DNA from: a virus | Lineage: Duplodnaviria > Heunggongvirae > Uroviricota > Caudoviricetes | Length of the DNA: 5,680 nucleotides | IMG/VR virus record: IMGVR_UViG_2703719354_000026 | Reading direction: 5' to 3' (one strand) | Part shown: piece by piece, positions 2,325 to 4,086 of the stretch | How the letters are laid out: every line of letters begins with the position of its first letter | Position numbering within the stretch: the first letter of the stretch is position 1 | The notes under the pieces: generated by a model | Told to the model about the DNA's origin: nothing | Databases searched by the model: none | What the model saw: only the letters and a program-made list of their open reading frames with translations | Position numbers and translations under genes: made by a program

Positions 2325-2782
2325 AAGCCTACCCCCTGACGAATACGGGCGACAAAAATCAGATGTGCGTGCGGCAGCTGGGCGCGGGCTTCGCGTTCAG
2401 TGGCTGCGGTAACGGTGTAAATATCAATGCTGCTGTGGTGGCACTGCATAAAGCGCCAGACAAAGTAAGGGCGTGCGGATACAGCCATGTGAAAGGCTCC
2501 CAGATGAATTTTAAGGAGTCTCGCTACTACGCTGCTAAACATGGTGGCGAGACGTAACAGGGTTAGCAGACTGGTCATCTGGAAACCAGCGAGCACAAAG
2601 GCTCCCCCGTTACGCCCCGCCATAATGCGGGTATGGGTAGGTTTACGGACACAAAAAAACCGCTTATCGGATGTGGGCGGCTGTCCGCCAGATGTATTCA
2701 GGCTGCTAAACCCGGTCGCCATGTGGGCGACGGGGGAAGCATACAGCCCCGTGATAATTTTTTGCAAGCGGTTTTTACGCAT
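2321..2782 (-). CDS. Hypothetical protein (153 aa); the C-terminal 55 aa (from internal ATG at 2488) is a paralog of ORF 2775..2972 and may be translated separately
   Basis: ATG at 2782 with AGGGG about 8 nt upstream, overlapping the upstream ORF's stop by 8 nt. Internal ATG at 2488 has GGGAG 8 nt upstream. C-terminal domain carries 'FVWRF', 'TEREAR' and 'ARIRQG' motifs. The N-terminal part has a hydrophobic stretch ('AFVLAGFQMTSLLTLLRLATMFSSVVA'). The ORF-track version starts further upstream at 2824 (GTG). Confidence 0.45.
   Translation of the reverse strand: MRKNRLQKIITGLYASPVAHMATGFSSLNTSGGQPPTSDKRFFCVRKPTHTRIMAGRNGGAFVLAGFQMTSLLTLLRLATMFSSVVARLLKIHLGAFHMAVSARPYFVWRFMQCHHSSIDIYTVTAATEREARAQLPHAHLIFVARIRQGVGL
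2333..2351. repeat. Copy 1 of an exact 19-bp direct repeat (plus strand cccctgacgaatacgggcg) at a gene junction
   Basis: Identical 19-mer at 2333..2351 and 2790..2808. On the minus strand it encodes the C-terminal 'ARIRQG' of one protein and supplies the RBS of the next gene. Confidence 0.9.
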
Positions 2783-3045: not shown

Positions 3046-3053
3046 TTGATTGT

Positions 3054-3098
3054 GTGTAATGTGTCATTACACATAAATACATTACATGAGGTGTAATT
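3054..3098. promoter_or_regulatory. Operator array: four TGTAAT-type half-sites in alternating orientation, overlapping candidate divergent promoters
   Basis: GTGTAATG (3054..3061) and CATTACAC (3065..3072) form a perfect 8+3+8 inverted repeat. CATTACAT (3080..3087) and GTGTAATT (3091..3098) form a second pair. Spacings are 11/15/11 bp. The array sits just upstream of the RHH gene start (GTG 3102) and overlaps its GAGG RBS. Confidence 0.55.
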
Positions 3099-3101
3099 AA
3101 C

Positions 3102-3281
3102 GTGTCAACACACAAAAACGAAAGGCGTGGTAATCCTCCGTTCCAGTTCCGTTTAGATCCTGACTTACGGGAAAAGATGGAAAAGGCACAACAACAGGAC
3201 GGCGATGATTCTCTTGCTGCCTGGATAAAGCGAATAATCCGCAAAGAATTACAGCAACGCGGCATAGAACCCAAAGGATAA
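3102..3281 (+). CDS. Arc/MetJ-type ribbon-helix-helix (RHH) DNA-binding protein, 59 aa, GTG start
   Basis: GTG at 3102 with GAGGTG 8-9 nt upstream; in-frame stop immediately upstream at 3087..3089. Translation 'VSTHKNERRGNPPFQFRLDPDLREKMEKAQQQDGDDSLAAWIKRIIRKELQQRGIEPKG' follows the Arc/Mnt/CopG pattern (N-terminal beta strand 'FQFRL', then two helices). Below the ORF-track length threshold, so not listed there. Confidence 0.75.
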   Translation: MSTHKNERRGNPPFQFRLDPDLREKMEKAQQQDGDDSLAAWIKRIIRKELQQRGIEPKG

Positions 3282-3338: not shown

Positions 3339-3524
3339 ATGAACAACGAAGAATTACGGGAAATCGCATTATCCATACTTGAAAGACAGGTAGAAAAAAA
3401 ATTAAGAGAAATGGATGAAATGCCTGACCATGAACAGGAAGCAAGGCCAAAAAGATTTGCCCTTGAGGATTTTCTTAAAAATTGCCCAAGAAAGATGAGA
3501 TCGTGGCGTTGTTGTCCGCCCTGA
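3339..3524 (+). CDS. Hypothetical 61-aa protein co-transcribed with the RHH gene (partner protein, function unknown)
   Basis: ATG at 3339 with AGGAG (3328..3332) 6 nt upstream. It starts 57 nt after the RHH stop and is followed by an intrinsic terminator. Acidic helical N-terminus and a Cys/Pro-rich basic tail ('CPRKMRSWRCCPP'). Confidence 0.6.
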   Translation: MNNEELREIALSILERQVEKKLREMDEMPDHEQEARPKRFALEDFLKNCPRKMRSWRCCPP

Positions 3525-3600
3525 TGACAGATTTGCCAACCAGCCAAAAATGTGGCATCGTTGTCGATGCATAGTGTAATCAACATGTATATCATATTTT

Positions 3601-3627
3601 TGCGACCATCATAGGTCGCATTTTTTT
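3601..3627 (+). terminator. Rho-independent terminator of the RHH operon
   Basis: Perfect 7-bp stem tgcgacc (3601..3607) / ggtcgca (3614..3620), 6-nt loop, then seven T (3621..3627). On the minus strand the hairpin is followed by A-rich sequence, so it is plus-specific. Confidence 0.75.
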
Positions 3628-3664
3628 GCCTGTAATCCGGCAATTGTGGCGCTTCTTCACACAG

Positions 3665-3674
3665 TTGATATAAT
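3665..3674 (+). promoter_or_regulatory. Candidate extended -10 promoter (TGaTATAAT)
   Basis: Exact TATAAT at 3669..3674 preceded by TG at 3666..3667. No good -35, which is acceptable for extended -10 promoters. Confidence 0.3.
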
Positions 3675-3680
3675 TCCAAT

Positions 3681-3748
3681 GCTCATATTTATTTTTTGTG
3701 CAGCAGGTTAATCGTTCACAAAGGCGCTCAGGTAACTGGGCGCTTTTT
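3681..3748 (+). ncRNA. Candidate small RNA of about 68 nt (hypothetical; promoter-to-terminator unit without an ORF)
   Basis: Bounded by the extended -10 element at 3666..3674 and the hairpin + U-tract at 3723..3748. No ORF with an RBS in between. Confidence 0.25.
3723..3748 (+). terminator. Rho-independent terminator-like hairpin
   Basis: Stem ggcgctcag (3723..3731) / ctgggcgc (3736..3743) with one G-U pair, GTAA loop, then TTTTT (3744..3748). Confidence 0.5.
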
Positions 3749-3872
3749 GTTATGCCTGAAAAACCCCAATTTTGTTGTTTTTCAGTTTCACCAGGGCGAA
3801 CGAATCCCCGCCCACGTTCTGGCGTATATTCAATCTTCATGGTTATAGCTCTGTGTTCAGATGATTGATGTG

Positions 3873-3891
3873 TGGCGGCTGCGTGCCGCCA
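3873..3891. other. Perfect hairpin (7-bp GC-rich stem, 5-nt loop) 7 nt downstream of the alpA stop, without a U tract
   Basis: tggcggc (3873..3879) - tgcgt - gccgcca (3885..3891). No T run on either strand, so not a canonical intrinsic terminator. Confidence 0.5.
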
Positions 3892-3897
3892 GCGTGA

Positions 3898-4086
3898 TTA
3901 ATGAACTGCCTTGCAGCTATCCTTCCAGGCCAGAACCTCGGATAAAGACCAGCCAACGGAACGACCGCCAAGTTTACGACGTGATGGGAATTGTCCGGCC
4001 TTTTCCAGGCGGTAGCGACACGTACGGCTAAGGCCGGTTAGTTTTTTGCATTCTTTTTCACGTATAAACCGATCAGTGCTTAACAC
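3898..4086 (-). CDS. alpA: AlpA-family (prophage CP4-57 regulatory protein-type) small HTH transcriptional regulator / excisionase-like protein, 62 aa, GTG start
   Basis: Translation 'LSTDRFIREKECKKLTGLSRTCRYRLEKAGQFPSRRKLGGRSVGWSLSEVLAWK' matches the AlpA pattern (RFLRL..TGLSRST.YRL...G.FP....LG.RSVGW...E...W). GGGGG lies 6 nt upstream of the GTG. There is no in-frame ATG upstream (stop at 4114..4116). It sits directly downstream of the integrase, as is typical. Confidence 0.9.
   Translation of the reverse strand: MLSTDRFIREKECKKLTGLSRTCRYRLEKAGQFPSRRKLGGRSVGWSLSEVLAWKDSCKAVH

Follow-up and report, generated by a model that had tools for sequence, protein, structure and literature searches.

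The stretch of DNA analysed here, a 5,680-nt window of the Caudoviricetes record IMGVR_UViG_2703719354_000026 in IMG/VR, is, judged from its open reading frame (ORF) map, family scans and annotated Escherichia coli relatives, the regulatory end of an E. coli phage-inducible chromosomal island (PICI) or capsid-forming PICI (cf-PICI), that is, of an integrative phage satellite. Between a ribbon-helix-helix (RHH) gene cassette and the convergent regulator gene alpA, positions 3666-3748 are tentatively interpreted as a genuine accessory small RNA (sRNA) gene of E. coli/Shigella PICI and cf-PICI satellites, whose product would act as a cis-antisense RNA against the transcript downstream of alpA (rough probability 0.45). 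What the sequences show in silico is the unit itself with its strand and structure, as well as its conservation and its optional occurrence; its transcription start, expression and antisense action are predictions. The segments concerned are the following:

3102-3281, plus strand: RHH/YlcI-like gene, a weak NCBIfam match to YlcI_YnfO_N (20 bits).
3339-3524, plus strand: orf61, the orf2 of the RHH-orf2 cassette, from the ORF map.
3601-3627, plus strand: terminator T1 of the RHH-orf61 operon, from a terminator scan and folding, with a stem that covaries among relatives.
3645-3660, no strand assigned: degenerate palindrome in the -35 to -20 region, from alignments, GTGGCGCTTCTTCAC in the window and GTGGCGCTTCGCCAC or ATGGTCATTTCGACCAC in relatives.
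3666-3674, plus strand: extended -10 element of the candidate RNA, TGaTATAAT (TG 3666-3667, a 3668, TATAAT 3669-3674), from the sequence.
3681-3748, plus strand: predicted transcript of about 68 nt, its start placed 7 nt past the -10 element and its end in the T-run.
3700-3717, plus strand: conserved single-stranded core GCAGCAGGTTAATCGTTC, following a U-rich tract at 3692-3697, defined in the set of loci ascertained through orf2.
3724-3748, plus strand: intrinsic terminator T2 with an 8-bp stem including one G.U pair, a GTAA loop and T5, from sequence, folding and covariation.
3898-4086, minus strand: alpA, the PICI master regulator gene, convergent with the candidate RNA (Pfam Phage_AlpA, 61.8 bits; role from PMC11773190).

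The GC-rich hairpin with GTAA loop and T-tract that an earlier, sequence-only reading had pointed out was located at 3724-3748, where G3724-G3731 pairs with C3736-C3743 (one T.G wobble) around a GTAA loop at 3732-3735 and ahead of a T-run at 3744-3748, and it forms a Rho-independent terminator on the RNA's own strand. For the 41-nt hairpin segment, the folding energy is -19.0 kcal/mol on the plus strand, a value that none of 200 shuffles equalled (z -5.5), and -12.2 kcal/mol on the minus strand. Among relatives, 25 variants of T2 were collected, 23 of them complete and the other two cut by contig ends, and the plus strand is the better folder in every one: the 20 intact full-length variants reach -17 to -20.6 kcal/mol, the three with stem mismatches (L172, L051 and L080; L numbers denote loci of sister islands) reach -12.0 to -14.6 kcal/mol and still surpass their own minus strand, and minus-strand energies lie between -5 and -13 kcal/mol. 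Furthermore, no stem variant is free of G.U pairs, and each such pair corresponds to a C.A mismatch on the minus strand. When 19 distinct hairpins were aligned with a register set by hand, pairing held in 97.4% of the cells and both partners had changed in three of the eight pairs (C-G has become A-U in the window, for instance), giving a covariation score of 0.428 against 0.235 ± 0.031 in shuffles (0 of 500) that collapses when the register is slid; this alignment, with N placed in 4-nt loops, was fitted to the structure, and its variation comes from few stem types. The covariance-model alignment was dropped for pair counting: the unequal loop lengths of the two stem types muddle it, and 77% came out as paired. 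On these sequence patterns the hairpin is under selection for the plus strand. It does not qualify as a bidirectional terminator, since its minus-strand version is weak, carries C.A mismatches and ends in a CUUUGUG tail with at most three U, so that transcripts leaving alpA should read through it.

The extended -10 element proposed earlier can be read directly at 3666-3674, with no match to a -35 hexamer. The string TGNTATAAT occurs once in the window, and the extended -10 pattern is not beyond chance (one match against 0.26 expected; at least one match in 47 of 200 shuffles); because it is not rare enough alone, the case rests on comparison with other islands. A two-hexamer promoter and terminator scan of the window listed T1 (3601-3627) and neither the extended -10 element nor T2; the promoter was missed because it has no -35, and T2 presumably because greedy stem extension enters the A/T tracts and consumes the T-run. 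In the comparison, TGnTATAA(T/C) is present at all 85 loci of the window's class (class A, defined below), and the bases directly upstream of it vary (GTT, GTC, GGC or GGA). The palindrome at 3645-3660 is a possible operator, to judge from its placement.

Covariance model R1 of the RNA matches 3666-3756 at 102.9 bits, and the 70-nt RNA 3681-3750 folds at -23.8 kcal/mol (z -4.75), with its 5' portion of about 40 nt unpaired in the consensus fold; RNAalifold applied to mixed classes suffers from a stem-register problem and is usable only for this unpaired 5' half. A 5' stem CCUGC:GCAGG was considered and rejected, as it is not consistently kept and probably lies upstream of the transcription start. 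That no ORF with a ribosome-binding site intervenes between promoter and hairpin holds for the family as a whole. The window alone has an ATG there, opening a 10-codon ORF (MLIFIFCAAG, 3679-3711, plus strand) at the predicted 5' end of the RNA, and because this ATG is absent from relatives the ORF is probably meaningless. Directly downstream of the RNA terminator, and inside the minus-strand ORF described below, lies a perfect 9-bp AU-rich inverted repeat, CTGAAAAAC(N12)GTTTTTCAG, at 3756-3785.

The segment 3640-3900 was found by BLAST in 983 of 5,426 complete E. coli genomes, and pattern scans of IMG/VR together with annotated loci yielded 133 pattern matches with full flanks, representing 71 distinct 182-nt versions. 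The covariance model finds one copy of the RNA per island, always on the strand of the cassette, which it invariably follows, and the copies fall into classes that differ in what stands upstream. In class A (85 copies, including the window), T1 is followed after about 40 nt by TGnTATAA(T/C), and because T1 stands between the operon and the RNA, the latter would be a separate unit and a free-standing gene. In class B (51 copies, including EDL933/Sakai), T1 is absent and the RNA region begins directly past the orf2 stop codon with TTGCCC-17-TATCAT; its 5' RNA segment is unrelated to that of class A and 12 nt longer. A third upstream type, TTCACT-17-TATAAT with yet another 5' segment, precedes the same core and hairpin in L256. 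At least three unrelated upstream segments thus each bring a -10 hexamer to about 30-45 nt before the core.

Because the search patterns had fixed the core, islands were re-ascertained in metagenomes through the orf2 protein, which gives a set unbiased for RNA sequence. The 77 informative loci comprise 29 of class A, 27 of class B and 21 without the RNA module, and in 56 of the 77 the RNA lies on the orf2 strand at a fixed distance after orf2. Where the module is absent (class C, about 27%; class C loci: L177, L179, L186-L188, L195, L196, L210, L231, L233, L235, L238, L240, L254, L255), alpA comes directly after T1, with a strong Shine-Dalgarno sequence (SD) and ATG. L242 has lost promoter and core through a clean deletion bounded by two CCGGCAA repeats, of which one lies ahead of the promoter and the other in the terminator loop. 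The absence of the module from about 27% of sister islands points to an accessory gene rather than a merely required terminator. Moreover, the right boundary is sharp: similarity between islands stops directly after the T-run, beside at least six different contexts, among them several alpA types and an antirepressor gene. We take the module to be a self-contained RNA gene that islands can do without, while leaving a moderate residual probability that it has no function. In two hybrids, L253 and L244 (about 2715-2785), the class B promoter TTGCCC-17-TATCAT leads after some 20 nt into a terminator of the T1 type, and the core is missing; an RNA of about 50 nt with different content would result.

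These classes also bear on a simpler explanation, offered by the sequence-only reading as a second terminator insulating alpA, in which the hairpin is a terminator or back-up terminator of the RHH-orf2 operon against convergent alpA transcription and the -10-like hexamers are incidental or yield a functionless by-product. Part of this stands: in class B the T2 hairpin is the sole terminator of the operon past orf2, so that the RNA there could be just the operon's 3' untranslated region (3'UTR), and the extended -10 on its own lacks significance within the window, islands free of the module exist, and the members are so closely related that conservation could partly reflect descent. The insulator explanation does not carry over to class A, which has a good T1 40 nt upstream of the promoter; as class C shows that T1 suffices, there is no need for a second terminator that comes with some 100 nt of conserved sequence, and a module that follows T1 in some islands and is dispensed with in T1-only ones must be more than an insulator. 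Nor does a pure terminator, which needs just a stem, account for a core that is more conserved than the stem, or for at least three non-homologous upstream segments that supply a -10 at the right distance. We consider it doubtful that the RNA has no function of its own. DapZ and MicL are sRNAs from 3'UTRs with an internal promoter, and the class B RNA resembles them in using the operon terminator and in having its promoter directly past the orf2 stop codon; the window differs in that T1 separates the operon from the RNA.

If the module is an RNA gene, its position suggests what it might act on. The RNA is convergent with alpA and no competent terminator faces the alpA direction, so that it is fully complementary to the transcript leaving alpA; the earlier suggestion of an antisense relation to minus-strand read-through is borne out in silico by a discrete, convergent plus-strand unit that combines a predicted promoter, some 45 nt of single-stranded RNA and an intrinsic terminator. 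In the alpA contexts that were read, an SD and ATG stand 10-57 nt past the alpA stop codon, and from there a long minus-strand ORF runs antisense through T2, the RNA, T1, orf2 and the RHH gene toward the Icd-like, C4 and replication genes:

Window 3840-2775, L001 4302-3136, L002 4141-3119 and L003 4228-3329, minus strand: long ORF, often in frame with an Icd-like domain.
3592-3840, minus strand: 5' part of the alpA-downstream ORF (MKIEYTPERGRGF...), 82 codons in the window, the presumed antisense target.

In the proposed mechanism, an extended -10 promoter independent of a -35 would produce an RNA with an unpaired 5' half of about 40 nt, containing the U-tract and the core, that ends at the strong plus-strand terminator. 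This RNA would pair with the 5'-proximal part of the alpA-downstream ORF, from about codon 4 in many sister islands, since the common alpA contexts place the ATG about 10 nt past the T-run of the RNA, and over codons 31-54 in the window. The duplex would block or uncouple translation, create a substrate for RNase III, or both; leaky read-through from alpA would be aborted and the island would stay silent, until strong alpA transcription induced by the helper phage overran or titrated the RNA. AlpA is described as the master activator of Gram-negative PICIs and cf-PICIs, induced by the helper phage (PMC11773190; bioRxiv 10.1101/2022.09.08.507074).

Several observations weigh against this interpretation. 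The RNA is missing from about 27% of sister islands and is consequently not essential to the switch, and in the window the pairing region begins 92 nt into an ORF that is itself frameshifted. The family is young and confined to E. coli and Shigella, so that its conservation is weaker evidence than the counts suggest, and the covariation of the hairpin rests on few stem types. No transcript from the RNA locus is reported in the literature searched, the locus is unmentioned in the RNase E-CLASH (crosslinking, ligation and sequencing of hybrids) supplements of Waters 2016, and the orphan-peak table of an Hfq-CRAC (crosslinking and analysis of cDNA) study of strain Sakai has no entry in Sp7 or at 1.5966-1.5969 Mb, for one growth condition and a class B copy. 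The latter is mild evidence against an abundant Hfq-bound RNA from the class B copy under those conditions. In addition, an RNA acting by cis-antisense pairing alone could do without conservation of its primary sequence, but here the core is the best conserved part, for which a seed acting in trans or a protein-binding site would be the better fit.

This last point leads to a reading in which the RNA is a trans-acting sRNA of the Hfq or ProQ type, the core GCAGYRGGUUAAUUGUUC is a seed for host or helper-phage mRNAs, and the position opposite alpA is incidental. The architecture is typical of such RNAs, with a predicted promoter of its own, an unpaired 5' region with an internal U-tract and a terminator with a U-tail, and the module is optional and moron-like; pathogenic E. 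coli commonly encode sRNAs of such design on islands and prophages (PMC4104026, PMC5286369). Among 22 distinct RNA sequences (59 full-length model matches at orf2-ascertained loci), no stretch is better conserved than the core, and its consensus, GCAGYRGGTTA(AT/TC)TGTTC, followed by an A-rich linker and the hairpin, is common to classes A and B, whose 5' ends are unrelated. Set against this are the missing Hfq-CRAC peak in Sakai Sp7, a U-tail of just 5 U in the window, and the lack of targets. When the 5' 44 nt of the RNA were scanned against both strands of the window, the best trans match reached -26.7 kcal/mol, within the shuffle range of -25.0 ± 1.7, and only the perfect antisense partner exceeded that range. 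Among 139 islands, no site with at least 10 nt of contiguous complementarity is common to all, the commonest runs of 10-11 nt (G.U allowed) occurring in at most 38 loci; the search for complementary sites elsewhere in the element that had been suggested earlier therefore produced nothing convincing. Likewise, 50,697 phage records searched with blast at E<=10 contained no stretch complementary to the RNA, in a search to which seeds of 10-14 nt are invisible. Trans action with an incidental position is thus rated rather unlikely, but should the RNA act in this way, the satellites would carry a regulator of host or helper-phage genes.

The cis-antisense interpretation is tied to an unexpected property of its presumed target, which is a separate puzzle: the minus strand is open across the whole cassette. 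The median length of the open stretch is 370 codons across 118 distinct loci ascertained through the RNA, and the medians for the orf2-ascertained classes A, B and C are 326-428 codons. In 21 cassette representatives sharing less than 80% identity, the antisense frame with shared wobble positions contains 6 stops, against 29.1 ± 4.4 in codon-shuffled versions (minimum 18 of 500), a depletion of about 5-fold, and the other two antisense frames of the same 21 genes contain 76 and 46. Stops per 100 codons in the shared-wobble frame amount to 0.88 in cassette genes as opposed to 2.84 in control genes of the same islands. In the island of E110019 (L001), the ORF has 388 codons and ends in an Icd-like domain. 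The T-run of T1 (3621-3627) has 7 T in the window and 8 T in this 99.4%-identical island, and with 7 T instead of 8 the long ORF is frameshifted in the window, leaving 82 codons instead of 388; the one-nucleotide difference may stem from mutation, from a sequencing error or from a slippery A8 run. The 82-aa minus-strand ORF was rejected as a real Icd-like gene because it has no family match, and the Icd-like label given by the annotation pipeline PGAP arises because the intact long ORF of relatives has a C-terminal Icd-like domain. The annotated 247-aa 'hypothetical protein' of O157:H7 is this antisense long ORF (L176 6732-7475, Sakai ECs_1576; L174 2398-3141, EDL933_RS32265), whereas RHH and orf2 are unannotated in O157:H7 reference genomes, as is alpA in Sakai; in other strains, PGAP calls fragments of the long ORF 'Icd-like' pseudogenes.

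An open frame of this kind could mean that the conservation belongs to a protein encoded on the minus strand rather than to a plus-strand RNA, the more so as it is open in most islands and preserved between hairpin types. However, its product is not conserved, reading KSAQLPERLCERLTCC in the window and KKAAPNWSRLSEQITRC in class B, and found no protein family match in the family scans. Variation in the cassette follows a plus-strand codon pattern, pos2 < pos1 < pos3 in four gene families, by which the cassette genes are real plus-strand genes, and the G.U wobbles, the T-run and the -10 element are signals specific to the plus strand. Minus-strand coding as the source of the conservation is accordingly held to be improbable.

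The frame is plausibly kept open for translation as such, which would spare alpA read-through from polarity toward the Icd, C4 and replication genes. The logic of C4, icd and ant in P1 is of this type: when translation and transcription are uncoupled, downstream genes fall silent. Taken further, the candidate RNA may be the antisense brake of a read-through device not recognised before, in which alpA is translationally coupled to a 'spacer' ORF of 250-500 codons whose protein sequence is irrelevant and which selection keeps free of stops; ribosomes would escort RNA polymerase to the Icd, C4 and replication genes, except in the silent state, when the RNA and the convergent transcription of the cassette would jointly halt the escort. 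Such a fuller scheme is speculative and on the unlikely side; were it true, the RNA would be the missing repression module of Gram-negative PICIs.

For a cis-antisense RNA, parallels are provided by lambda OOP RNA and P22 sar RNA, which are short convergent antisense RNAs in phage lysis-lysogeny switches. Like them, the candidate is about 70 nt long, is predicted to have a strong promoter of its own, has an intrinsic terminator, and is convergent with, and overlaps, the downstream part of a regulator's transcript on the opposite strand, the overlap being one of geometry only; it would be expected by analogy to act through a duplex, by RNase III cleavage or by a translation block. Unlike them, it overlaps the next ORF and not the alpA coding sequence, shows no relationship by sequence or Rfam, resides in a satellite and is optional in its family. 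A conserved small RNA that runs head-on to alpA and ends a convergent RHH cassette is an obvious candidate for keeping the island quiet, and it offers a small, precisely defined target for mutagenesis, with natural controls in sister islands that have the RNA (classes A and B) or do not (class C and the L242 deletion).

Equally relevant are the horizontally acquired Hfq-dependent sRNAs of pathogenic E. coli (Esr41/EcOnc14, AgvB, AsxR and the Pas sRNAs), which share with the candidate a short length, the order promoter, seed and terminator (promoter and seed being putative in the candidate), restriction to Escherichia/Shigella and a varying presence or copy number (PMC4104026, PMC5286369, bioRxiv 10.64898/2026.05.13.724894). 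They differ in lying in lambdoid prophages or SpLE1 rather than in PICIs; the Sakai Sp7 locus is not in the EcOnc list, and Rfam and text searches reveal no similarity. EcOnc33, of about 71 nt, was ruled out as the candidate because it is located in the lambdoid Sp6. A literature search across 8 million full texts returned no match to strings of the RNA sequence, the literature searched on PICI/AlpA, YlcI/YnfO, Esr41, the Pas sRNAs and the EcOnc tables does not describe the candidate, and the PICI/cf-PICI papers (PMC11773190; bioRxiv 10.1101/2022.09.08.507074) mention no sRNA, RNA regulator or repressor. The RNA module of E. coli PICIs is thus apparently undescribed so far, although it occurs in hundreds of the searched E. 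coli genomes, including O157:H7. A strict scan of genome contigs for the core pattern returned Shigella flexneri only and so affords no view outside Escherichia/Shigella; no homologue of the RNA was found in the phage collection, and one was found in an E. coli plasmid record.

The sequence-only reading had also drawn an analogy with the CI RNA by which P4-type satellites control immunity, and this analogy fails for the candidate itself, as the window contains a genuine member of that family elsewhere:

2540-2627, minus strand: C4/CI-type immunity RNA, Rfam C4 (RF01695), 72.7 bits (gathering score 45).
2653-2731, minus strand: isrK-like hairpin, Rfam, 36.8 bits.
2695-2744, minus strand: a1b1 target element, Rfam c4-a1b1, 45.5 bits (gathering score 46.7).

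When all families of Rfam 15 were searched at E<=10, neither C4 (RF01695) nor isrK (RF01394) nor any other family matched 3665-3750; the best scores at 3695-3751, sau-6072 with 24.3 bits and SpF41 with 23.3 bits (gathering scores 50 and 52), are terminator-level noise from unrelated models of Gram-positive sRNAs. Read by eye, complementarity between the candidate core and the a1b1 or C4 loops does not exceed 5-6 nt, and the duplex scan found no match there. With a C4-family RNA identified elsewhere in the window, the candidate is a different RNA, and only a general analogy speaks for identifying it as a P4 CI or P1 C4-type immunity RNA, an identification so improbable that it can be set aside. 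The likeness to P1/P7 C4 and P4 CI (RF01695) lies in the small size of the RNA, in its location within the control region of a P4-like or satellite element, and in the proposed uncoupling of translation and transcription; the candidate differs in being non-homologous, on the opposite strand, and predicted to be a primary transcript with its own promoter rather than a product of operon processing. The C4 RNA, the a1b1 element and the isrK-like hairpin are flanked by Icd-like ORFs at 2972-2775 and 2488-2321, which amounts to a module resembling P1 immI inside a PICI.

The remainder of the window and its relatives agree with an island of this type. The window adds one gene to those given above:

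5680-4451, minus strand: int, from the ORF map.

From int through alpA to a replication module with primase/helicase, the genes follow in a single orientation at a chromosomal attachment (att) site, which is the arrangement of PICIs and cf-PICIs; on the minus strand past the cassette come the two Icd-like ORFs flanking the C4-family RNA, then small ORFs, DUF4222 and the primase/helicase. The same architecture occurs at several att sites, namely tqsA, allE, tRNA-Pro/yejM and roxA. The roxA copy, in O157:H7 Sakai, is annotated as 'prophage Sp7; untypable', carries capsid, portal and terminase genes, and is the published cf-PICI EcCIEDL933; its copy of the RNA module is of class B and lies at NC_002695.2 1596815-1596917, minus strand.

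Some further features concern the control region and the cassette. Directly past the alpA stop codon, at 3874-3893, stands a GC-rich hairpin, TGGCGGC-ACGCA-GCCGCCA, which has a U-tract on neither strand and is conserved in relatives, where wobble and compensatory variants occur; its half-sites (TGGCG/CGCCA) are similar to the palindrome at the RNA promoter. Four GTGTAAT half-sites lie within 3050-3105 and 3574-3588, two as an inverted pair at 3053-3073, a third overlapping the RHH start at 3091-3097 and a fourth far downstream, at 3574-3580, immediately ahead of T1, and by their arrangement they are likely operators of the RHH protein in a divergent promoter region. Across L001-L256, RHH and orf2 are highly mosaic, with at least 11 RHH and at least 10 orf2 types below 80% identity that are freely recombined, and the short non-coding joints, TTGCCCACCAGCC after orf2 and the RNA module, are conserved and look like recombination anchors.

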